DNA of 64,000 bases from NCBI GenBank assembly GCA_964543265.1, contig CAZIWN010000001.1, positions 104,577 through 168,576 of the forward strand, written 5' to 3'. This DNA is from an uncultured Candidatus Saccharibacteria bacterium. Its GTDB lineage: Bacteria > Patescibacteriota > Minisyncoccia > UBA6257 > 1-14-0-10-40-38. Both the position numbers and the translations under genes were made by a program. Shown here piece after piece: positions 6,484-64,000 of the stretch. Numbering within the stretch: the first letter of the stretch is position 1; each line of letters begins with the position of its first letter. The notes beneath the pieces were generated by a model. It was not told the DNA's origin and searched no databases. It saw nothing but the letters and a program-made list of their open reading frames with translations.

Positions 6484-6522
6484 TTTTAACCCCCTTAATC
6501 TAATGAACTAATTTTATTATAT

Positions 6523-6585
6523 AAATTAAAACCACCCACAGCAACCGTAGTCGCTGGGGTGGTTCTGCGTCAGATTGTCTGACGC
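6523..6585 (-). terminator. Two tandem hairpins downstream of the islet lipoprotein gene: GCGTCAGA/TCTGACGC, then CCACCC...GGGTGG followed by a T-tract on the minus strand.
   Basis: Perfect 8-bp and 6-bp stems. The minus-strand sequence continues as TTTTAATTT. Confidence 0.6.
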
Positions 6586-6878
6586 TAGTTCGTCGCGGAG
6601 ATGGTCTCCGCGAGGCGCTCGAGGCCATCGTTCAGCTTCTCGAGGCCGTCGATGATCTTCTCCATCTCGATCGTCTGCTCGCGCATCCGCTCGAGATCGG
6701 TGTCGTCGCTCTTGACGACGTTCGGCAGCATGCGGTCGCGCATCTCGTCGTAGGCCTCCACCTTCTTCGTCGGCACCTCCTCCTTGGCGGGGGAGACGCA
6801 GCCGACGGACAGGAGGCAGAAGAAGGCGGCGATCCAGAACCCGTAGTTGAACGCGAGCATGTTTCGAAGCAAACGCAT
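6585..6878 (-). CDS. Small secreted or lipoprotein-like protein of 97 aa, GC-rich codons.
   Basis: Signal peptide with a lipobox-like LLSVGC. SD site CAAGGGAAAGGGAAAG is upstream of the ATG, and a consensus promoter lies upstream on the minus strand. Confidence 0.55.
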   Translation of the reverse strand: MRLLRNMLAFNYGFWIAAFFCLLSVGCVSPAKEEVPTKKVEAYDEMRDRMLPNVVKSDDTDLERMREQTIEMEKIIDGLEKLNDGLERLAETISATN

Positions 6879-6987
6879 TTTCTTCTTTCCCTTTCCCTTG
6901 GAAAGCTATTCTCTCGCAAGAAGGCGCTCGCCCTCATCGCAAAAGAATGCTTATTTGTTAATGTTCAATCTAACCCTAACCTTTGTA

Positions 6988-7017
6988 ATTATAGCACAAT
7001 ATATTGATATTTGTCAA
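6988..7017 (-). promoter_or_regulatory. Near-perfect sigma70 promoter with extended -10 (TTGACA-18-TGcTATAAT), copy A of the repeated promoter module.
   Basis: Read on the minus strand: CTATTGACAAATATCAATATATTGTGCTATAAT. Confidence 0.7.
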
Positions 7018-7020
7018 TAG

Positions 7021-7074
7021 ATAAGAAAGCCAATAAAATAATAGCCCCGGGTGCGCATTTGCGCATTCCGGGGC
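7021..7074 (-). terminator. Terminator of the 123-aa islet gene: GCCCCGG...CCGGGGC stem with an inner GTGCGCA/TGCGCAT palindrome, followed by a T-rich tract on the minus strand.
   Basis: Read from the sequence. Confidence 0.6.
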
Positions 7075-7080
7075 AGTAGT

Positions 7081-7452
7081 TCAGCTCGAAGCGGTAGCGG
7101 TGGCGGGGAACATCTCGCGAAGTTCCGCGCGAATCTCCTGGGCGAACCTGGTCATCGCCAAGCGCCATTCATCTTCATCGGTATGGATCCTGAGCTTTTT
7201 GGGCCAATACTTCGGGTCGCGCTTGGCCTTGGCCATGTCTGCAAGGTAGACCATCGCATCGAATCCTGTCTTGGCGTTGTTGTCTCCCGGCTTCAGTTCG
7301 AAGTCGAACGACATCTCGCCAATCCCATCGAAATCGGGCGCGGTCACGAAAGCAACGAGCTCTTCGTAGCTTCCAAGACCAAGCCATCCTTCCGGCGCCT
7401 GCTTCTTGCCGGGAAGAAAATGAAGGTCGTCAAGAAAAACATTCCTTTCCAT
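7081..7452 (-). CDS. Hypothetical 123-aa protein, GC-rich codons, unknown function.
   Basis: Clean ORF with SD site AAGGGA upstream of the ATG. Its own promoter (TTGACA-17-TAAACT at 7503-7531, minus strand) and its own terminator flank it. Composition is unlike that of the flanking genes. Confidence 0.5.
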   Translation of the reverse strand: MERNVFLDDLHFLPGKKQAPEGWLGLGSYEELVAFVTAPDFDGIGEMSFDFELKPGDNNAKTGFDAMVYLADMAKAKRDPKYWPKKLRIHTDEDEWRLAMTRFAQEIRAELREMFPATATASS

Positions 7453-7574
7453 TTTTCCCTTGTCTCCGCTTGGGTTTTTCTTTCCCTTAGGTGCTGACGT
7501 ATAGTTTAGCCCAAAACACCCAATTTGTCAAAGTTATATTAATCTACTATCTTATGCTAAAATTACATAAATAA

Positions 7575-8833: not shown

Positions 8834-8911
8834 AAATACAGCTCTTACGGTTAGAATCGAATCAATCAAACAAGCTTCCATTAAGTTGAGAAGCATAAGG
8901 GGGAGACTGAA

Positions 8912-9421
8912 ATGCCGGCAACCGCAACAATGATCGAAGTCTTCCAGATTCTCGGATTGGAGATGATAAAGCGTCCAGTTTTTTCGGATCTGCTTCCAAA
9001 AACTGGATGCGTGCCAGATAAGAGAATCACGGAACAAGTAATGGGCGAGCCGTATTCTCTATCAGCTACAAGAGATGACCATTGGCGATCCGGAACAAGA
9101 GAAATCGCTCTAGTTGAACATCCGCCAGTTTGGTCAATGTCTACTGTCTGCGCGAATTCAGCCAAGCTCGGTCTGGGTCTATTGGATCCATACGATGTTC
9201 TATATTTCGCCATCAAGCATCCAGGGGTCCAAAGGTCTGGCCCAATCGCCTTCGTTCATCAGCCGCTTTTTCTAGGCGAGAACCGGAGAGGCCTTTTTGC
9301 TCTCGTTCTCGGTTTTGATGGGCAAGACAGAACCATTAATCTTGTCAGCTGGTTCGATACTTGTGATGCCGTTCCCGGAGTTCGCTACGCCCTTTTGAAG
9401 AGGCCAGAGAAGAAGAAGTAG
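8912..9421 (+). CDS. Hypothetical 169-aa protein, intermediate to high GC, unknown function.
   Basis: Strong SD site AAGGGGGAG lies 7 nt upstream of the ATG, and a terminator follows the ORF. Its composition is foreign to the host. Confidence 0.55.
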   Translation: MPATATMIEVFQILGLEMIKRPVFSDLLPKTGCVPDKRITEQVMGEPYSLSATRDDHWRSGTREIALVEHPPVWSMSTVCANSAKLGLGLLDPYDVLYFAIKHPGVQRSGPIAFVHQPLFLGENRRGLFALVLGFDGQDRTINLVSWFDTCDAVPGVRYALLKRPEKKK

Positions 9422-9433
9422 TTCAAGGTCTCA

Positions 9434-9474
9434 AAATCCCGCGCATGAGGTAAGTCCAAAGCGCGGGTTTTTTA
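9434..9474. terminator. Bidirectional terminator CCCGCGC...GCGCGGG flanked by A- and T-tracts.
   Basis: Sits between convergent genes. Confidence 0.75.
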
Positions 9475-9885
9475 ATTCAAAAACAAATACGCCCAAATTG
9501 CTACGAAAAGAATGGGCAAAAATAGGAGCCAATTCCATAAGCGGTTTTTTCCAATCAAAACATCTTTAACAGATCCTTCTTTATGTGGCCACATCTGAAA
9601 ATCTTCATATCCAAGTTCTTTTTCAATCGCCCCGATTCTTCTAATCCAGGCATCTCTCCAAAGTTTCTGTTTCCTTAATAAGAAAAACCAATAGAAAGAC
9701 AGGATTAATCCCGTAAGCTGGGCGATATGTAGATATTCTGGGCTGACTTTGCCGGCAAATATCGCCACAAAGATGGCGCTTTCAATCGCAAAGAAAAAAT
9801 TGTATAGGCGATACAGCCCATCTATTTCAGATCGAACTTGAGCGATAAACCGATCATACTGCTTCTCCAAAAATTCTTTATTCAT
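9472..9885 (-). CDS. Hypothetical membrane protein of 137 aa.
   Basis: Two to three TM helices. The start overlaps the upstream gene by ATGA. Confidence 0.5.
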   Translation of the reverse strand: MNKEFLEKQYDRFIAQVRSEIDGLYRLYNFFFAIESAIFVAIFAGKVSPEYLHIAQLTGLILSFYWFFLLRKQKLWRDAWIRRIGAIEKELGYEDFQMWPHKEGSVKDVLIGKNRLWNWLLFLPILFVAIWAYLFLN

Positions 9886-10463
9886 TTTACATCAGTTTTT
9901 CTTTCTACTTTTAGAAGGGAGCTTGGAAATTCAACCGTCAACTTAGCCAATAAGTTCATTGGATTTTTATTGTTTTTATCAAATCTAAACTGTTCGTCTT
10001 CAAAATCTAGGAAAATTTGAGAATAATCATCCTTGGTTTGCTTACCTTTTATTTTCTCTCCAAAATATATAACCGCCATTCTCTTGCCATTTTTTTCACC
10101 AAGTCTTGCTTGTACCCAATAATTATCATCTTCAGCTTCGTCTATTACTTTAGTTGGGGGTAAATCAAGAGAGTGTATTGTGTAATCTAATGTGAGATAT
10201 CCATGCCAAGCTTTTTCTACATCTTTTCTGATCTGTCGATGATCTTTTTTGCATTCGTATTTTTTATCACATTTAACACATAAATAGCTATTTAATTCTT
10301 TATCTAAAATGTTGTGGCAATTCTGGTTTGGACAAAGAGGATTATCCCCAATAAATGCGACGCCATTTGGAGCAATAACTGGCATCCACAAAACCCCATG
10401 ACTTTTATATAATCTTTTTTCCTCCATATTATCTATAACTTGTTGGGCGGTGAGGCCTATCAA
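9882..10463 (-). CDS. Hypothetical protein of 193 aa with Cys/His clusters (CPNQNCHN, CVKCDKKYEC).
   Basis: ORF in native AT-rich sequence. Translationally coupled to its neighbours. Confidence 0.5.
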   Translation of the reverse strand: MIGLTAQQVIDNMEEKRLYKSHGVLWMPVIAPNGVAFIGDNPLCPNQNCHNILDKELNSYLCVKCDKKYECKKDHRQIRKDVEKAWHGYLTLDYTIHSLDLPPTKVIDEAEDDNYWVQARLGEKNGKRMAVIYFGEKIKGKQTKDDYSQIFLDFEDEQFRFDKNNKNPMNLLAKLTVEFPSSLLKVERKTDVK

Positions 10464-10620
10464 GTAGTTCTCCGTTAGGATCTCTTAATATTGTTAAATT
10501 TCCACAATTAGGACAAATTTCTAGATTTACAGAAGATCCCTTATTAATTTCAATCTTTCCCCTAAAAGAACAGTTTTTACAAAAAACATATTCATTGTAA
10601 GTAGTTTTATTATCTGTCAT
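10429..10620 (-). CDS. Small zinc-ribbon protein of 63 aa (CxxC...CPNC).
   Basis: Two CxxC pairs. First gene of a three-gene minus-strand operon. Confidence 0.5.
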   Translation of the reverse strand: MTDNKTTYNEYVFCKNCSFRGKIEINKGSSVNLEICPNCGNLTILRDPNGELLDRPHRPTSYR

Positions 10621-10702
10621 ATTTTTTTTAGATATTTTTTAACCCTTGTAATAAGTCTACAAATCAACGAAGACACTTGCAATAGATGATATAATTTATC
10701 AA

Positions 10703-11437
10703 ATGGCTAGGCTTAACGGAAAAAACAGTGGCTATTCCAATAAAATGGAAAAAACTACAAATATATTTTCTATTATTTGGTTATTAATGATTTTCTGGTT
10801 ATTTTATATATATTTTAAAAATATAAATAAAATTAATAATTTTCCAAGCCTAATTACTGCTTTAATTATTTTTAGTCCATTAACTGCATTTACCTATATT
10901 CAAATTATAAAATGGCAGAAAATTTCTAAAAAATTTCATCAAGGACAAGTCGGCGAAGCTTTAGTTCTTTTAGAATTATTAAAATTGCCGGACAATTATT
11001 CCATACTCCAAGACATAAAGTTTAATGGCGAATATTGGAATACTGATTTTGTTGTAATTGGTCCAACTGGGATTTTCACTATAGAGGTAAAAAGTCATAA
11101 GGGGTTTATTGAATTTAATAAAATAGAAAGACAGTTAACAATAAATAACTTACCATTTGAAAAAAATATTATATTTCAAGCAAACAGACAAGCAATGGGA
11201 TTACGAAGGTATTTAATGGAGTCAATAAATTTTTTTACACATATTAATCCCGTTATTGTTTTTTCAAGCTATTTTACTAAAATGCGCTTTGGTATGAAGT
11301 CAGTTGCTGATACGGGAGTTCAAGTTATTCAAAAAAGATGGCTAAGAAAAGTTATAGAAAAAGGAACAGGAAATCTAGATAATGAAATTATCTTAAAAAT
11401 AGAAAAAGCGATGATTAATTTAACATCTTTAAATTAA
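10703..11437 (+). CDS. Membrane-anchored NERD (nuclease-related domain) protein.
   Basis: N-terminal TM helices, then GEALVL..L..LPDNY.ILQDIKF......DFVVIGPTGIFTIEVKSHKG, which matches the NERD signature. Confidence 0.7.
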   Translation: MARLNGKNSGYSNKMEKTTNIFSIIWLLMIFWLFYIYFKNINKINNFPSLITALIIFSPLTAFTYIQIIKWQKISKKFHQGQVGEALVLLELLKLPDNYSILQDIKFNGEYWNTDFVVIGPTGIFTIEVKSHKGFIEFNKIERQLTINNLPFEKNIIFQANRQAMGLRRYLMESINFFTHINPVIVFSSYFTKMRFGMKSVADTGVQVIQKRWLRKVIEKGTGNLDNEIILKIEKAMINLTSLN

Positions 11438-11442
11438 TCTTT

Positions 11443-12048
11443 CTATGTCTTATCTTTTCTAAATTTTCTAAGCACAAAATATAAAATCACCACAAACACC
11501 GCCCCAGAGACATCCATCAGCATATCTTTTTGTGCATCCCAAATATCTCCCTGCGAACCCAAGAAAGCCGCCCCAGCATCTCCTCCCCAAATTTCTGCAT
11601 ATATCCACTCAATCCATTCATAAAGAACTGCCACAAAAGATATGGTAAAAATCGCATAAGTTGAAGCAATCCATTTTTTAGCCACAAGATTTCTACTTAA
11701 AAGATATTCCATTATAGGCAGGGCATAGAAGCCAACGGTAAAATGGGCAACTCGGTCAAACATATTCCTCTCAAAACCAAATAAATTTCCAAACCAATCA
11801 AATGGAACTTTTTCAAAAGTATAGTGTCCACCGATGGTATGTAAAAACGGCAAGACAAACATAAAAGCATAAGCCGTATTAGAAAAACGAATATTCTTAA
11901 AGTATAAAAATACGATAAAAGCGACGAGTATAAAAATCGGCCCATTCTCCGCATACCAAACATCTCGCGAAAATGGATGAATTCCCGCAATTATAAATTC
12001 AATAACATATATAGCCAGTAATAAGTGCGGAAAATACTTTTTAAGCAT
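11443..12048 (-). CDS. DUF2238/YjdF-family membrane protein.
   Basis: Motif GGHYTFEKVPF..W......RN.FDR..HF..GF. Confidence 0.5.
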   Translation of the reverse strand: MLKKYFPHLLLAIYVIEFIIAGIHPFSRDVWYAENGPIFILVAFIVFLYFKNIRFSNTAYAFMFVLPFLHTIGGHYTFEKVPFDWFGNLFGFERNMFDRVAHFTVGFYALPIMEYLLSRNLVAKKWIASTYAIFTISFVAVLYEWIEWIYAEIWGGDAGAAFLGSQGDIWDAQKDMLMDVSGAVFVVILYFVLRKFRKDKT

Positions 12049-12053
12049 TACCT

Positions 12054-13205
12054 TTATTTAATCACTTTCGCCACAGTCTTCACAAGTCGTTTATCAAAAA
12101 TCTTTGGCACGATATTTTGCTCTGTTGGTTTCTTAATTAATTTAGCAATTTCTCTCGCGGCTTTAATTTTCATCTCATCAGTTATTTTATTGACTCTATT
12201 ATCTAAGGCGCCCCTAAATACTCCAGGGAACACTTGCGCATTATTAAGCTGATTTGGAAAATCGCTTCTTCCAGTTGCCACAATTCTCGCTCCGGCTTTA
12301 AGTGCCTCCTCTGGCATAATCTCTGGCACTGGGTTGGCCAAAGTAAAAACGATCGAATCTTTATTCATAGAAGCGATCATCTCTGGGGTAACCAAATTCG
12401 GCCCAGAAACGCCGATAAATACATCGGCACCCATAAATGCGTCACTTGCCGTGCCAGTTTTATTATCTCTATTAGTAATAGAAGCTAATTCTGCTTTTTC
12501 TGCGGTTATGTCAGCGCGGTTTTTATGAATTATTCCAGAACGATCCAAAACTAAAATATTTTTAACTCCCGCCAAAAGCAAAATCTTAGTTATTGCCGTT
12601 CCAGCTGCTCCGGCTCCACTAATAACAACTCTCACATTTTCAATTTTCTTTTTTACCACCTTCAAAGCATTTAATAATCCTGCTAAAACAATAATTGCCG
12701 TGCCGTGTTGATCATCGTGCATCACTGGAATTGATAATTCTTCTTTTAATCTCCTTTCAATTTCAAAACATCGCGGAGCAGAAATATCTTCCAAATTAAT
12801 TCCTCCAAAAGCAGGGGATATCGCTTTTATGGTTTTTATTATCTCTTCTGTGTCTTGGGTATTTAAAACAATCGGCACCGCATCGATATTGGCAAACTTT
12901 TTAAACAACAAACATTTCCCCTCCATCACTGGCAACGCTCCTTCTGGACCAATATTCCCTAAGCCTAAAACTGCCGAACCGTCGGAAATCACCGCCACGC
13001 TATTTCCTTTCATTGTATAGTCTCGTGTCTTTTCTTTATTTTTGGCCACAAACGAACTCACCGCTCCAACTCCAGGGGTATAAGCCAAGCTCAAATCTTC
13101 CATATTGCGAATCGGCACCTTGCTTTCAATTGCAAAAACTCCAGTATGTTTTAAATGTAGCGCCAAAGATTTTTTATTTATCTTTTCAAGATTTCTTTTT
13201 TTCAT
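12054..13205 (-). CDS. NAD(P)-dependent malic enzyme, short form.
   Basis: Motif LAYTPGVG...ISDGSAVLGLGNIGPEGALPVMEGK, plus a Rossmann fold GAGAAG. Confidence 0.9.
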   Translation of the reverse strand: MKKRNLEKINKKSLALHLKHTGVFAIESKVPIRNMEDLSLAYTPGVGAVSSFVAKNKEKTRDYTMKGNSVAVISDGSAVLGLGNIGPEGALPVMEGKCLLFKKFANIDAVPIVLNTQDTEEIIKTIKAISPAFGGINLEDISAPRCFEIERRLKEELSIPVMHDDQHGTAIIVLAGLLNALKVVKKKIENVRVVISGAGAAGTAITKILLLAGVKNILVLDRSGIIHKNRADITAEKAELASITNRDNKTGTASDAFMGADVFIGVSGPNLVTPEMIASMNKDSIVFTLANPVPEIMPEEALKAGARIVATGRSDFPNQLNNAQVFPGVFRGALDNRVNKITDEMKIKAAREIAKLIKKPTEQNIVPKIFDKRLVKTVAKVIK

Positions 13206-13797: not shown

Positions 13798-14115
13798 ATG
13801 ATTAATTGGAGCAGTAAAGAAATTGAAAAATTAGTTACAGCAATTCTTCTTTTAGAAACAGAAGAAGATGCCAAAACATTTTTAAGAGATTTAATGACAG
13901 AAAAGGAAATTAGAGAATTTTCAAAACGCTTACAAGTCGCAGAAATGCTTAGTAATAAAATCTCTTATTCAGTTATTGAAAAAGAAACAGGTTTAAGCTC
14001 AACCACAATTGCCAGAGTTGCCAAATGGCTAAACGGCAAAGAGGGTGGATATAAAAATATTTTAGATAAACTGCATCGCCATAGCGCCTTACAGGTCGGT
14101 AGAAGGTTGTCTTAA
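13798..14115 (+). CDS. TrpR-like YerC/YecD family DNA-binding protein.
   Basis: Motif ...EEDAKTFLRDLMTEKEIREFSKRLQVAEML.......IEKETGLSSTTIARV. Confidence 0.75.
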   Translation: MINWSSKEIEKLVTAILLLETEEDAKTFLRDLMTEKEIREFSKRLQVAEMLSNKISYSVIEKETGLSSTTIARVAKWLNGKEGGYKNILDKLHRHSALQVGRRLS

Positions 14116-14216
14116 TGTTGGATAAATCATTAAGCTAACCTTCTCCTGAGTTGGAGAAAAGGGTCTGCTGGTCACCCTAAAAGACTAGCAACGGTTCTTT
14201 GACAAGGGAGAGAGTC

Positions 14217-14417
14217 ATGAACAGTCACATGCACCCGCACGATCACGATCACGGCGTTCGCGCTTCCGACGATCGGCATCACGGTGTTCACGGCGACCAC
14301 AGTGATCACAGCGACAGTGGCCACAGGCACCACAGGGGTGCGCACGGTCACGATCACAAGGCGCACGGTCACCACCACGGGTCGGTCCACAAGCAGAAGA
14401 GGGGCGGCGCGCACTGA
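14217..14417 (+). CDS. Histidine-rich 66-aa peptide (about 38% His) with GC-rich codons; likely metal binding.
   Basis: SD site AAGGGAG lies 6 nt upstream of the ATG at 14217. The run is MNSHMHPHDHDHG...HGHDHKAHGHHHGSVH. A terminator follows. Confidence 0.55.
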   Translation: MNSHMHPHDHDHGVRASDDRHHGVHGDHSDHSDSGHRHHRGAHGHDHKAHGHHHGSVHKQKRGGAH

Positions 14418-14493
14418 TTTCGTATTCCGCGATTTGTCAGAGATGTCATCATGAAGTCTTTTCCAAGTCCGAAGTCCGGTATTCAATACGAAA

Positions 14494-14538
14494 AAGGAGT
14501 TGATCACGATACGTCGAGATCAACTCCTTTTAATTTTT
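14494..14538. terminator. Bidirectional terminator AAGGAGTTGATC...GATCAACTCCTT followed by a T-tract.
   Basis: 12-bp perfect stem. Confidence 0.8.
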
Positions 14539-61376: not shown

Positions 61377-62318
61377 ATGTTGAAGCACTCTTTTCTTCAA
61401 TCTCAAGAATGGGCTGATTTTCAAAAATCTTTAAATAGAGATTTTTTAAATTGCGAAATTAATGGAATAAAATCTTTTTTTCAAAAAAATAATTTTCCTT
61501 TAAGGTTTCATTATTTTTATTTTCCTCGTGGACCAATCTTTAAAAAAGAAATAGATGATTCAGAGCTCAATAGCTTAATTAATATATTTAAACAGGGGAG
61601 AGTAGCCTCCAAAAAAACAATTTCTTTTAAAATAGAGCCGAATGAAAATTATTCAGAAAAATTAGAACAAGTATTATTTAGAGCTGGATTTAAAAAGGCC
61701 AAATCAATACAACCACAAGAAACTATTATTTTAAATCTGGATAATACCGAAGAAGTGCTTCTTCGAGAAATGGAACATGATACTCGTTATGCAATAAGAT
61801 ATTCAATTCGTCAAGGCGTTGAAATTATTAAATCAGAAACTTTAGAAGATAAGGAAAAATTATTCGAAAAATTCTGGGATATTTTTAAAGAAACAAATAC
61901 AAAACATAACCTTAAAGCTTACGATAAAGCTTATTATAAAAAATTATCTGAAATTGATGGAAAATTAAAATCTTATATATATCTTGCCCAAATTAACGGC
62001 CAAAGTATTGCTTCAGCCATATTTTTATCTTACGGCAGTGAAACATTCTATATGTTTGCCGGCTCGCGTACGGGGTTTGCCAAGTTTAACGCTCCAAGCC
62101 TGATCATCTGGACCGCCATAAGGGATTTTAAGCTTAAGGGCTTTAAAACGCTTGATTTATGGGGTGTTAGCGATACAAATACTAAATGGCTTGGTGTAAC
62201 TAGGTTTAAAAGAGGTTTTGGAGGCAAATCTATAAAGTATATAGGAACTTACGAATATGTATTAAATAAATTTAATTATTATATATTTAATTTAATAAAA
62301 TTTATTTTAAGAAAATAA
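61377..62318 (+). CDS. FemAB-family peptidoglycan bridge transferase-like protein.
   Basis: N-terminal FLQSQEWADFQ, which is typical of FemAB/acyltransferases. Confidence 0.5.
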   Translation: MLKHSFLQSQEWADFQKSLNRDFLNCEINGIKSFFQKNNFPLRFHYFYFPRGPIFKKEIDDSELNSLINIFKQGRVASKKTISFKIEPNENYSEKLEQVLFRAGFKKAKSIQPQETIILNLDNTEEVLLREMEHDTRYAIRYSIRQGVEIIKSETLEDKEKLFEKFWDIFKETNTKHNLKAYDKAYYKKLSEIDGKLKSYIYLAQINGQSIASAIFLSYGSETFYMFAGSRTGFAKFNAPSLIIWTAIRDFKLKGFKTLDLWGVSDTNTKWLGVTRFKRGFGGKSIKYIGTYEYVLNKFNYYIFNLIKFILRK

Positions 62319-62469
62319 TTTAAATAAAAGGGTAGAAATATGATAAATAATCATAAAATCATATAAAGTTTATTTTATATAGTTTTATGACTATATATGT
62401 CGCAAAAGGTATATTGGGCGACAGGTAATAGATATAGTCCCCGATAGATCAAGATAAGATTTTTTTGAA

Positions 62470-62520
62470 AATTAAAAAGCCCCTCTCCTATCTCTTTCGA
62501 GTATAGGATTGGGGCTTTCG
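62470..62520 (-). terminator. Minus-strand terminator AAAGCCCC...GGGGCTTT followed by a T-tract on the minus strand.
   Basis: Read from the sequence. Confidence 0.6.
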
Positions 62521-62521
62521 T

Positions 62522-63220
62522 TCAGTGATTCCAGTTTGTAGCGACTTCGCTACCAAACTGGTTTGCCAGACAATTCCTGAAGCGTTCGTCTTCCTCCTTT
62601 TCCCTCTTCAGGATGTCTCCAATTCCCTGCTGGTTCTCTTCGAGCTTCTCGAAGCTCATTCCGCAGAAGGCGCTTCTCGCCAATTCTTCGCAGTTGCGAA
62701 GCTTGGCAAAGCCGACGACGAGATCATTCAGCTGGGACGGCGACAAATCGTGGGGGTTGATCTCAGGCAAGGTCTCGAATAGATTCATCGCCATCTTTTG
62801 GAGATGATCGAGATCCATCTTGCCTTCTGGGTCCTGCAAGTAATTCCAGGATTGATGATCAACCAAGCTCTTCTTATGGAGCTTGGTAAGTTCGTGCTTG
62901 AGAAAATCGTTTTCCTTCTTCAGGGCTTCGATTTCCTCGTGAGCGCTTGTGAGCTCTTGGGTGAGCTCGAGGATGTTGCTCTGGCTCTCGCCAGTTTCGA
63001 TCTGAGGCTCGATTGCGCTCCTCTCGGCAACGATCTCCGTTTCCGGAGCCGTCGGCGCAAGTGTCACAGCCTGGTAGGCTTCGATCTTGGTAGGGTCATC
63101 TCCAACGAAGTTTTGTTGAGGGTGACAACCATAATCGACGCCGTGATTGTTGTTTCCTGAAATTGCGAACATGGCAACGCAGAAAACAACAAGCGCAATC
63201 AATCCGACAATTCGCTTCAT
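62522..63220 (-). CDS. Secreted coiled-coil protein of 232 aa with GC-rich codons.
   Basis: Signal or TM anchor MKRIVGLIALVVFCVAMFAISG, heptad-rich middle and SD site AAAGGAG upstream. Second gene of a two-gene minus-strand operon. Confidence 0.55.
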   Translation of the reverse strand: MKRIVGLIALVVFCVAMFAISGNNNHGVDYGCHPQQNFVGDDPTKIEAYQAVTLAPTAPETEIVAERSAIEPQIETGESQSNILELTQELTSAHEEIEALKKENDFLKHELTKLHKKSLVDHQSWNYLQDPEGKMDLDHLQKMAMNLFETLPEINPHDLSPSQLNDLVVGFAKLRNCEELARSAFCGMSFEKLEENQQGIGDILKREKEEDERFRNCLANQFGSEVATNWNH

Positions 63221-63249
63221 AGCTGACAGCTCCTTTGTCTTTCGAGTGA

Positions 63250-63295
63250 TCCCGGAAGGATCTCTTTCACTACTTAAGCCGAGATCCTTCCGGGA
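63250..63295 (-). promoter_or_regulatory. Perfect 15-bp intercistronic hairpin TCCCGGAAGGATCTC...GAGATCCTTCCGGGA with no U-tract.
   Basis: Sits between two co-oriented genes; possible processing, stability or attenuation element. Confidence 0.45.
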
Positions 63296-63311
63296 ATCTT
63301 CTCGGCTGCCG

Positions 63312-63851
63312 TCAGTTGTGGATCTTGTTGTTCGAGCCCTGGTAGTTTTCGACGTTGGCGTCGCTCCTGCCGTTCAAGTCAACGTCGTTGCCGTTGTTCC
63401 CGCCATCGGGACCAGTGAGCAACCCACCACCTTCGAAGTCGTGATCGTTGTTGTCGCAGTTCTTCTCGTTGACGCCGCCACCGTTCTTGATGTCGATGTC
63501 ATTCCCGTCGCAATCGTCCAGCTTGATCTTGCCGCCATCGGCATCGATCTCGTCGCCGTTCAGGCCTTCACCGCGGGCCAGTACGCCCTTCTTGATGGTG
63601 ATCTTGGCCTTCACGTAGTCGCCGTGATTCCAGATCTCTTCGACGACGACGTTGTCCGCGCTGTCTGGGCTGTTGGTGACCTTTCCTTCTCCGTCCGGAG
63701 CGGTCCAGGTCTGGCCAGGTCCCAGGCGAGTCGTGTGCGTTCCCGATGACGATCCGCTCGTCGCCGCGTTGGCGACCGACGTCCCTCCTCCGATCGCGAA
63801 GATCGCGACCAGAGCGAGTGCGAGCAAGGCGAAAATCTTCCTCGGATTCAT
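63312..63851 (-). CDS. Secreted Asp/Gly/Asn-rich protein with DxDxDG-like repeats; putative Ca2+-binding protein.
   Basis: Signal peptide MNPRKIFALLALALVAIFAIGGGTSVANA. Loops DADGGKIKLDD, DGNDIDIKNGG and DNNDHDFEGGG. SD site AGGAG upstream. Confidence 0.55.
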   Translation of the reverse strand: MNPRKIFALLALALVAIFAIGGGTSVANAATSGSSSGTHTTRLGPGQTWTAPDGEGKVTNSPDSADNVVVEEIWNHGDYVKAKITIKKGVLARGEGLNGDEIDADGGKIKLDDCDGNDIDIKNGGGVNEKNCDNNDHDFEGGGLLTGPDGGNNGNDVDLNGRSDANVENYQGSNNKIHN

Positions 63852-64000
63852 GCGTTCACTCCTGTGTTTTGGCCCGTTTTCGGTTCTTAAGCGAAATCGG
63901 GCTTAAGCCTACCTCCCCTTCTTTCGTCGCTGTTTTGTCAAGGTGCTACGAATCTAGGGCTACACACCCCAGTTTCATACTTAACATTACTCCTTTAACA

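Follow-up and report, generated by a model that had tools for sequence, protein, structure and literature searches.

A mobile-type ZnR63-P181 gene pair in a variable slot beside a resident 8xMP gene of a Candidatus Saccharibacteria genome: a candidate conflict-linked regulator or sensor

In the current work, we analyzed four adjacent genes within a 64-kb stretch of DNA from an uncultured Candidatus Saccharibacteria bacterium (the window) that had been put forward as a candidate defense module. We conclude that the locus is a mosaic rather than a four-gene system and that the module built around one of its genes, P181, probably serves as a regulator or sensor linked to conflict systems; we put the probability that both statements hold at roughly 60%. 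The backbone runs from malic enzyme through a gene for an 8xMP-family membrane protein to a DUF167-TruB-cREC_REC-DnaJ-Hsp70 series, with 8xMP a resident gene that has its own terminator, and the 2.2 kb upstream of 8xMP are a fast-turnover slot. The P181 family, in turn, moves among many contexts and is found repeatedly within or abutting restriction-modification (R-M) operons and serine-recombinase elements. A general role in defense or conflict is thus retained for P181 alone, and the description of the genes as native to the host holds only for 8xMP, the others lying in the variable slot.

Table 1. Positions of the features discussed, numbered from the first letter of the window
Feature	Position	Strand	Basis or remark
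Intrinsic-terminator-like hairpin	9430..9467	-	CCCGCGC...GCGCGGG then AUUUU, directly after 8xMP stop codon
8xMP-family membrane protein, 137 aa, 3 TM, lineage resident	9472..9885	-	PF24838
P181, 181 aa, uncharacterized CPR-restricted family	9882..10427	-	Homologue alignment, P0001
Variable slot, 2.2 kb, malic enzyme to 8xMP start	9886..12053	.	tblastx vs L076
ZnR63, 63-aa C4 zinc-ribbon protein, first gene of minus-strand unit	10429..10620	-	ORF, invariant CxxC...CxxC
Divergent intergenic region ZnR63/NERD	10621..10702	.	82 bp, AT-rich
Membrane-anchored NERD (PD-(D/E)xK-type) nuclease-like protein, 244 aa	10703..11437	+	PF08378
DUF2238 membrane protein, remaining cassette gene	11443..12048	-	PF09997, E 1.5e-46
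Malic enzyme	12054-13205		Bordering variable slot

The original prediction was borne out in part: all four open reading frames lie where the list of reading frames had placed them, and a 193-aa start, one gene overlap and a histidine cluster fell away. The reading frame given as 193 aa (9882 to 10463, minus strand, TTG start) begins instead at the ATG at 10427 and encodes 181 aa, a start that is backed by the homologue alignment and by a 100%-identical protein called by NCBI (P0001). Overlaps had been described among the minus-strand genes; P181 and 8xMP do overlap by 4 nt (ATGA, the 8xMP start within the P181 stop), and ZnR63 and P181 are separated by a single nucleotide (TAA, 1 nt, ATG). The three minus-strand genes look like one transcription unit, as predicted from sequence, because the sequence just past the 8xMP stop codon is predicted to fold into a strong hairpin that leads into a U-tract. 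This hairpin has a folding energy of -17.7 kcal/mol (z -3.93; none of 200 shuffles equally stable), and a similar one lies 3' of 8xMP in the sister locus L076.

Comparison with that sister genome delimits the slot. Its locus (L076/L077) shares a common backbone of malic enzyme (93% amino acid identity), 8xMP (95%), DUF167, TruB (85%), cREC_REC and DnaJ (88%), and in the tblastx comparison with L076 nothing matches between malic enzyme and 8xMP. In the window the slot holds DUF2238, NERD, ZnR63 and P181; in the sister genome it holds DM13, YgjP-like, DUF1801 and TM-DUF2726 genes, with DUF2238 missing from the equivalent slot of L076. Four genomes have their slot junction 3 nt 5' of the 8xMP ATG, with unrelated genes ending 0 to 6 nt short of an identical 8xMP start. 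With its conserved backbone, a cassette that changes from one close relative to the next and nuclease-like genes in both cassettes (TM-NERD here, TM-DUF2726 in the sister), the locus resembles defense islands and integration hotspots. It differs from them in that no att-like repeats flank the slot and no integrase or tRNA gene was found at its borders, in the placing of the junction exactly at a start codon, and in that DUF2238, DM13, YgjP and DUF1801 carry no defense annotation.

The prediction of a membrane protein at the end of the minus-strand unit held up. Its product has three hydrophobic helices and matches PF24838 over its length (residues 8 to 136 against profile positions 2 to 132 of 136; E 7e-15; 55.5 bits against a cut-off of 30), and this domain is also precomputed for close homologues. 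PF24838 is named for an octameric membrane protein, and of such an architecture the three hydrophobic helices are what the sequence shows here; the window's gene is lineage resident and unlinked to P181 in relatives. Orthologues of 95% and 78% identity keep their position with differing upstream genes, and in all 8xMP orthologues were found behind four different upstream genes, including YqfO-like housekeeping and peptidase-like ones. At the 8xMP homologue loci L024, L025, L076 and L077 the other three genes are absent, and no 8xMP match was found in plasmids. Our literature search returned nothing on the function of 8xMP or PF24838, and no solved structure related to it by sequence was found; a possible link of the family to Francisella RipA plays no part in our reading.

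The fourth gene encodes, as had been proposed, a membrane-anchored NERD protein, with two N-terminal membrane helices (residues 20 to 38 and 51 to 69) and a match to PF08378 that covers profile positions 2 to 111 of 111 (E 2.5e-17; 63.8 bits against a gathering threshold of 22.1). Loss of its catalytic residues was one outcome to be checked for; E85, D115, E128 and K130, together with G81, are invariant in 19 homologues of the same architecture, and the nuclease is predicted to be catalytically intact. Weak matches link it to the N termini of BREX PglW (16.6 bits) and of the MADS kinase MAD6, with the PD-(D/E)xK residues kept. Unlike these, however, the window's protein is a stand-alone gene product with a two-helix anchor and without a kinase, helicase or methylase partner, and it has no BREX or MADS neighbors. 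TM-NERD homologues have unrelated neighbors and no conserved neighborhood, the other three genes are absent from the homologue loci L078 and L079, and our literature search found no described function for a stand-alone TM-NERD. NERD is an independent gene and not part of the ZnR63-P181 module.

What remains linked among the four genes is ZnR63 and P181, the sole conserved pair and the one evolutionarily linked unit. At 17 other loci a ZnR63 homologue lies immediately 5' of P181 in the same orientation, with a gap of -9 to +46 nt as called, and the loci fetched contain none in any other place; adjacency, strand and tight spacing are those of a two-gene module. All 17 loci belong to the tree group of the window's P181 (their P181s are 38 to 65% identical to it), which points to ZnR63 as a clade-specific partner. 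ZnR63 itself is the zinc ribbon that had been predicted, with two CxxC knuckles (C14, C17, C36 and C39) invariant in 18 homologues and kept family-wide, and its profile matches are to generic zinc ribbons, all under the curated cut-offs. Since both are C4 zinc ribbons of about 60 aa and weak Lar matches appear in three libraries, we considered whether ZnR63 is a Lar restriction-alleviation protein. It scores 16.3 bits against cut-offs of 28.6 (Pfam PF14354) and 39.6 (TIGR03655), and Lar is matched at E<=0.1 by 3 of 18 family members, beside dozens of other ribbon families; judged on these scores, the resemblance is generic ribbon similarity.

P181 has beta-hairpins and a 4-Cys zinc ribbon at its N terminus, a single long helix, and an all-beta domain of seven strands at its C terminus. 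The Cys/His cluster originally predicted survives as its cysteine part: the predicted zinc ligands C32, C37, C50 and C53 of a C4 ribbon are conserved across the family, and the histidines are not. In the AF2 model the beta-ribbon reaches a pLDDT of 97 to 98, and solved structures include no detectable relative of the beta domain; the model thus offers a fold that is confidently predicted yet unmatched. The family comprises 188 clusters at 50% identity, found in CPR (Patescibacteria) records only. Its C-terminal domain is about 60% identical across contexts and the N-terminal ribbon is more variable; such high C-terminal conservation is unusual for fast-evolving defense sensors and counts against a sensor role. 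None of the tools used predicted a binding or catalytic activity. Three other identities were rejected: an acidic DNA mimic of the Ocr/ArdA kind (pI averages 7.3, and the net charge on the C-terminal domain is near -1), a PD-(D/E)xK site built from conserved acidic positions (no fold of that kind was matched, and the domain is all-beta) and a phage or plasmid origin (relatives are absent from IMG/VR contigs and GenBank phages). No viral or plasmid copy that would give a direct record of mobility was found. P181 is autonomous: among loci with sequence 5' of it, the majority have it without ZnR63 or any consistent partner, and many of its genes sit in housekeeping contexts without a nearby conflict gene, as in RNR-P181-CobA.

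Elsewhere the family keeps different company. In two loci (L005 and L021) P181 lies within a type III system in the order Mod-P181-Res, the three genes having codiverged (59%, 49% and 60% identity), and an unrelated type III lineage has the order Mod-Res-P181 (L050). Type IIG/ISP and HsdR genes are upstream of P181 in L045 and L054, respectively; Dcm and a recombinase occur in L042; a methyltransferase, MutH-like, RhuM and PIF1-WYL occur in L012; PIN_12 abuts P181 in L060; and ZnR63 faces away from a large serine recombinase gene in L011, L026 and L029. P181 is also fused to other C-terminal domains, and in one protein (P0187), whose gene ends a type I-like HsdR-DUF3800-M/S operon, to an AbiU2 HEPN domain with the Rx5H motif RHKRIAH, a match that at 26.7 bits falls 0.1 bit short of the Pfam cut-off of 26.8. 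Judged by the Rx4-6H motif, P0187 is the only family member with a HEPN domain, and the window's P181 has none. R-M or recombinase-type conflict genes were found in 15 of 47 P181 loci (338 kb) and in none of 106 kb of control CPR DNA, an enrichment measured against a small control and with profiles that were themselves seeded from the P181 loci. On several independent occasions P181 appears to have joined unrelated R-M lineages, two of them type III, one type IIG/ISP and one type I-like, plus one HEPN RNase, and it is from such neighbors and the one fusion that we infer its conflict role. A search of PADLOC-DB v2 matched no known defense system: there was no match for ZnR63, P181, 8xMP or the P181 fusions and neighbors, and at most a weak similarity of NERD to PglW.

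The presence of HEPN genes, AbiU2 among them, within R-M operons has been described, and RhuM has been noted as a neighbor of PrrC-like genes (PMC3710099). P0187 resembles these systems (PrrC/EcoprrI, AbiU2 and AbiJ), as do the family members located within type III operons or behind type IIG ones and those with RhuM nearby. The window's P181, however, lacks the HEPN domain and, no R-M gene having been detected in the 64 kb, its module appears to be an orphan; moreover, the P181 domain is unrelated to the PrrC ABC ATPase and to the described AbiJ N-terminal domains. We propose that a mobile ZnR63-P181 pair landed beside an unrelated resident 8xMP gene and an independent NERD gene, inserted in such a way as to be cotranscribed and translationally coupled with 8xMP, and that this coupling is most likely a by-product of the landing site. 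P181 would be a nonenzymatic, zinc-dependent binding module for nucleic acid or an R-M subunit that senses or regulates nuclease-based conflict systems, in a role comparable to that of the N-terminal regulatory domain of PrrC- or AbiJ-type HEPN proteins, and ZnR63 would be its clade-specific accessory. A more far-reaching version, which we offer tentatively and think rather less likely to be right than wrong, is that P181 represents a new family and fold acting as a dedicated accessory or "guard" of nuclease-based CPR immunity, with ZnR63 as cofactor. Such a guard might bind either an R-M subunit (methyltransferase or specificity) or nucleic acid that is foreign or lacks modification, and then gate a second-line effector, be it the AbiU2 HEPN domain of the fusion, a PIN or Res nuclease next to P181 or, here, 8xMP. 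If so, this would be a PrrC-like layered defense made of entirely different parts.

It might be argued that ZnR63, P181 and 8xMP, with or without NERD, form one abortive-infection system, in which P181 senses and an 8xMP oligomer or the membrane nuclease is the effector. The packing is tight (1-nt spacer, ATGA overlap and just one terminator, 3' of 8xMP), P181 adjoins nuclease effectors elsewhere, and in the sister genome a different membrane-anchored PD-(D/E)xK-type protein, TM-DUF2726, lies directly 5' of 8xMP. Unrelated small membrane proteins also follow P181 in L031, L034 and L055, which together with the ATGA overlap leaves room for a partnership between P181 and membrane proteins. Nevertheless, 8xMP and NERD occur at 0 of 47 other distinct P181 loci, and the four genes were not found colocalized in relatives, the outcome that the original prediction had itself named as refuting it. 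Given, in addition, the fidelity of 8xMP to its place behind changing upstream genes, the unrelated neighbors of NERD homologues and the blank PADLOC result for the three minus-strand genes, we regard an integrated system as improbable.

It is unlikely, too, that P181 is an ordinary CPR zinc-ribbon transcription factor or nucleoid protein, possibly akin to an R-M controller, whose neighbors reflect regulons. The variable ribbon could confer specificity and the conserved C-terminal part a shared function, P181 is solitary in many contexts, housekeeping ones included, and in L005 and L021 it is a small gene directly 5' of, and codirectional with, the restriction subunit gene Res. C genes usually lie directly upstream of the restriction gene. 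However, C proteins are HTH proteins of about 80 to 100 aa from type II systems, and P181 is a zinc ribbon plus beta domain that lies mostly away from R-M genes; no HTH match at E<=1 was found among 75 members, nor any known DNA-binding family. The ribbon resembles RPA70-C and TFIIB-type ribbons, with all matches below threshold, no operator-like motif is common to the ZnR63 upstream regions here and in other loci, and fusions to a HEPN RNase and other C-terminal domains would be atypical of such a factor. Two small, tightly coupled genes in variable neighborhoods, with serine recombinases adjacent and, in L049, an XRE-type HTH gene 5' of P181, also bring to mind a type II toxin-antitoxin pair on mobile elements, with ZnR63 as the small upstream antitoxin and P181 as the downstream toxin. 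We consider this very improbable: toxin and antitoxin should co-occur obligatorily and P181 is so often without ZnR63, and it has neither a toxin-family match nor a recognizable catalytic motif. P181 also stands alone inside housekeeping operons, where an unguarded toxin would not be tolerated, and the toxin reading is therefore disfavored.

The small genomes of CPR bacteria encode a conflict biology that is largely unannotated. Here, an apparent four-gene "system" is removed, and the locus illustrates how genes can pass for an operon when a variable slot borders on a start codon. Were P181 an R-M accessory or guard, it would be a new class of component for type III and type I restriction biology and a marker for defense islands in CPR genomes; were it a regulator alone, the finding would be ordinary. 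Two smaller points concern the surrounding DNA. A GC-rich stretch at 8.8 to 9.4 kb was considered as a structured RNA and rejected, there being no Rfam match at E<=1 and a homologous protein being encoded in the sister genome. In the region between ZnR63 and NERD, a consensus promoter scan gave sites no more numerous than in shuffles. As had been remarked, no Shine-Dalgarno-like motif was seen upstream of any of the four starts; the same intergenic region carries TGATATAAT on the plus strand at 10687 to 10695, 7 nt 5' of the NERD ATG.

In the current analysis, we found that the locus is a mosaic, that the 63-aa zinc-ribbon protein ZnR63 is linked to its downstream neighbor P181, and that relatives of P181 recurrently occupy R-M and recombinase contexts. 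The original prediction had joined these two genes, the membrane protein gene 8xMP and the gene for the divergent, nuclease-like NERD protein in one candidate defense or stress module native to the host. Its description of the genes was essentially right: all four ORFs are present, and, as it had stated, no SD-like motif occurs at any of the four starts. Details of starts and overlaps required correction. The 193-aa length first given to P181 counted from a TTG, whereas an identical protein called by NCBI (P0001) and the aligned homologues set an ATG start and a length of 181 aa. The overlap of minus-strand genes holds for P181 and 8xMP (the TGA of the former overlaps the ATG of the latter) but not for ZnR63, which ends 1 nt ahead of P181, and what had been called a Cys/His cluster in P181 is a zinc ribbon built on four cysteines (C32, C37, C50, and C53). 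The divergent spacer between ZnR63 and NERD is AT-rich and 82 bp long. Within window 10687-10705, an extended -10 consensus (TGATATAAT) stops 7 nt short of the NERD start codon, which suggests that the NERD mRNA is leaderless or nearly so.

Features of the locus and its surroundings (window coordinates unless a related locus is named)
Feature	Coordinates	Strand	Remarks
cREC_REC domain protein	7081-7452	minus	PF20274, E 1.8e-9
169-aa protein, no family	8912-9421	plus	
Hairpin, GC-rich, with U-tract	9430-9467		directly after 8xMP; -17.7 kcal/mol, z -3.9
8xMP, 137 aa	9472-9885	minus	full-length Pfam PF24838 member, E 7e-15; three hydrophobic helices
P181, 181 aa	9882-10427	minus	ATG at 10427, 1 nt after ZnR63
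Homology break at 8xMP start	9883-9888; L076:4266-4275; L024:6970-6979; L025:534-543		
ZnR63, 63-aa C4 zinc ribbon	10429-10620	minus	first gene of minus-strand set
NERD protein, 244 aa		plus	two N-terminal TM helices and PF08378, E 2.5e-17
His-rich ORF	14199-14417		

We gathered relatives of P181 by exact look-up and in the species genomes of GTDB and the metagenomes of JGI, which gave 60 distinct loci; the 47 with usable context were analyzed. When six-frame ORFs of these loci were searched with the window's proteins, neither 8xMP nor NERD was found in any of the 47. P181 is missing, and different genes lie upstream, at the two closest 8xMP homologues and at a third orthologue, and two TM-NERD homologues sit in unrelated neighborhoods. 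The clearest evidence against a single module comes from a syntenic sister genome (L076/L077), which shares with the window, in the same order, malic enzyme (93% amino acid identity), 8xMP (95%), TruB (85%) and DnaJ (88%), as well as DUF167, a 108-aa gene, cREC_REC and Hsp70. In the slot between malic enzyme and the 8xMP start, the window carries DUF2238, NERD, ZnR63 and P181, whereas the sister carries another cassette, consisting of DM13, a YgjP-like gene, DUF1801 and a TM-anchored DUF2726 protein. On these grounds, the proposal of one four-gene module fails.

In four related genomes, homology sets in precisely 3 nt ahead of the 8xMP start codon (ATG), and four unrelated genes, one per genome, end 0 to 6 nt upstream of 8xMP; the hairpin terminator 3′ of 8xMP is also conserved. 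Given this break and the conserved terminator, 8xMP is resident and the rest is a variable cassette; nativeness to the host fits 8xMP and not the other genes. The apparent translational coupling (ATGA) arises because the P181 TGA falls inside 8xMP's own conserved start context (AAAATGAAT). As a recombination boundary, the 8xMP start is unusually precise and recurrent. No integrase, tRNA or flanking repeat was found at the borders of the slot, which behaves as an ordinary variable island. The sister's DUF2726 protein (PD-(D/E)xK clan; L076:3624-4268) ends 3 nt upstream of 8xMP. Across the two genomes, the slot holds two different membrane-tethered nuclease-like proteins, TM-DUF2726 and the window's TM-NERD, with no detectable sequence similarity between them. 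A YqfO/NIF3-C-like gene of about 105 aa adjoins P181 upstream in L016 (2759-3079) and downstream in L032 (1454-1777), and in L024 (6646-6963) it comes immediately before 8xMP; P181 or 8xMP also has a TrpR-like gene nearby in the window (13798-14115), in L001/L031 and in L024. These recurrent neighbors suggest that one chromosomal neighborhood serves as a repeated landing site.

NERD and 8xMP belong to families already known; what is new is P181, alone or together with ZnR63, an unannotated, CPR-restricted family whose predicted fold is unmatched. It comprises 108 clusters at 90% identity (188 representatives at 50%), and of about 186,000 GTDB species genomes only 15 carry it; informative record titles of carriers name Paceibacterota, Kaiserbacteria, Berkelbacteria or Patescibacteria. 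Several P181-bearing GTDB MAG records (L010, L018 and L020) are titled "uncultured Gammaproteobacteria" or "Candidatus Saccharibacteria," although in gene content and in P181 relatives they are Paceibacteria-like; the taxonomy supplied by the submitters is probably loose. P181 has no match in Pfam, NCBIfam, PHROGs or PADLOC, even with 75 members of the family scanned at E ≤ 1. Conservation is higher in the C-terminal domain than elsewhere (LD.P, ED..Y, K.G, Y.G.K, Y.Q.F.D, and RFD...P), and the protein is not acidic (pI ~7.3).

In 17 other distinct loci, the gene just upstream of P181 is a ZnR63 homologue in the same orientation, and no further copy was found in the fetched DNA. All loci with ZnR63 fall in the window's part of the P181 tree (38 to 65% identity to the window's P181), where some members have lost it; more distant clades never carry it. 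The many places at which P181 stands without this partner include the order NrdR-RNR-P181-CobA (L003/L018) and loci where it comes downstream of ribosomal protein L1 (L010), a DnaX-like gene (L017), or NUDIX plus a YqfO-like gene (L016). Because it stands alone in so many places, we regard P181 as functionally autonomous and ZnR63 as accessory. Matches of ZnR63 to Lar are weak and confined to 3 of 18 members; judged by its sequence, it is a generic C4 ribbon. In distant clades, a different small multi-Cys zinc-ribbon protein is encoded after P181, not before it (L047:6476-6673; L023:5349-5702); pairing with a small ribbon protein may recur in the family, the partner being supplied by unrelated genes.

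Neighbors of P181 were called from Pfam annotation and from profile searches over all P181 loci, and genes of conflict systems and mobile elements recur among them. In one type III lineage (L005 and L021), the order is Mod-P181-Res with 0- to 10-nt junctions, and the three have codiverged (59%, 49% and 60% identity); in a second (L050 and L052), it is Mod-Res-P181, with Mod and Res only ~24% identical to those of the first. A type IIG/ISP enzyme lies directly upstream of P181 in L045, an HsdR-like gene occurs in L054, Dcm and a serine recombinase in L042, and an N4/N6 methylase, a MutH/Sau3AI-like gene, RhuM and a PIF1-WYL helicase in L012. L011, L026 and L029 each have a large serine recombinase gene divergent from ZnR63, and in L060 PIN_12 abuts P181. 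In the 380-aa protein P0187, P181 is fused to an AbiU2-like HEPN domain (motif RHKRIAH; Pfam score 26.7 against a cut-off of 26.8), encoded by the last gene of an HsdR-like/DUF3800/N6_Mtase+Methylase_S operon. HEPN genes, including AbiU2, have been described inside R-M operons, together with RhuM-like genes, and read as layered defense on the PrrC/EcoprrI model (PMC3710099). DUF3800 lies near P181 twice, beside a stand-alone copy (L058:6645-7415) and within the R-M operon whose last gene is the fusion (L080:2672-3295). Two more kinds of C-terminal extension (~130 to 150 aa, beta-rich; proteins of ~310 to 330 aa), each common to two representatives (P0185/P0226 and P0191/P0229), have no Pfam or PADLOC match. 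One P181 copy (L041:1-12501) is accompanied by Rep-like, ParB-like, serine recombinase and 1,194-aa DEAH helicase genes, a segment that looks plasmid- or phage-like, with labels drawn from sequence motifs. Conflict or mobile-element genes were found in 15 of the 47 P181 loci (338 kb) and nowhere in the control, 106 kb of CPR sequence that took in the entire window. Were the rates equal, a control with none would be expected with a probability of ~0.009; the test is crude, with profiles seeded from these same P181 loci.

The associations of P181 with several R-M lineages and with a HEPN RNase are independent, and P181 would be a kind of "defense-island accessory gene." We infer a non-enzymatic, zinc-dependent binding module that may sense or regulate nuclease-based conflict systems and would pass horizontally among genomic contexts. 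No R-M gene was detected in the window's 64 kb, where P181 would then be an orphan copy, presumably cotranscribed with the resident 8xMP by chance. The finding would matter more if P181 proved to act as a guard or sensor for R-M. P181 might instead be a plain transcription factor, which we consider unlikely. An integrated abortive-infection system of P181 and 8xMP, perhaps with NERD, could draw on the few other P181 genes that are followed by unrelated small membrane proteins, but it has no support from co-occurrence and seems quite improbable. Least credible is a ZnR63-P181 toxin-antitoxin pair, against which the autonomy of P181 argues.

The catalytic residues of NERD, on which the original prediction had partly hung, are kept: E85, D115, E128 and K130 are invariant in 19 homologues, leaving the active site intact. 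We take the protein to be a predicted, independent membrane-tethered nuclease; defense, DNA uptake and DNA processing are candidate roles.

Short GC-rich islands (50 to 64% GC, against 35% for the genome) lie at window 6500-7500, 8900-9420, 14150-14500 and 62000-64000, with no Rfam match in them. Sister locus L076 encodes homologues of the cREC_REC and 169-aa proteins in matching positions, and their genes are therefore real and conserved.
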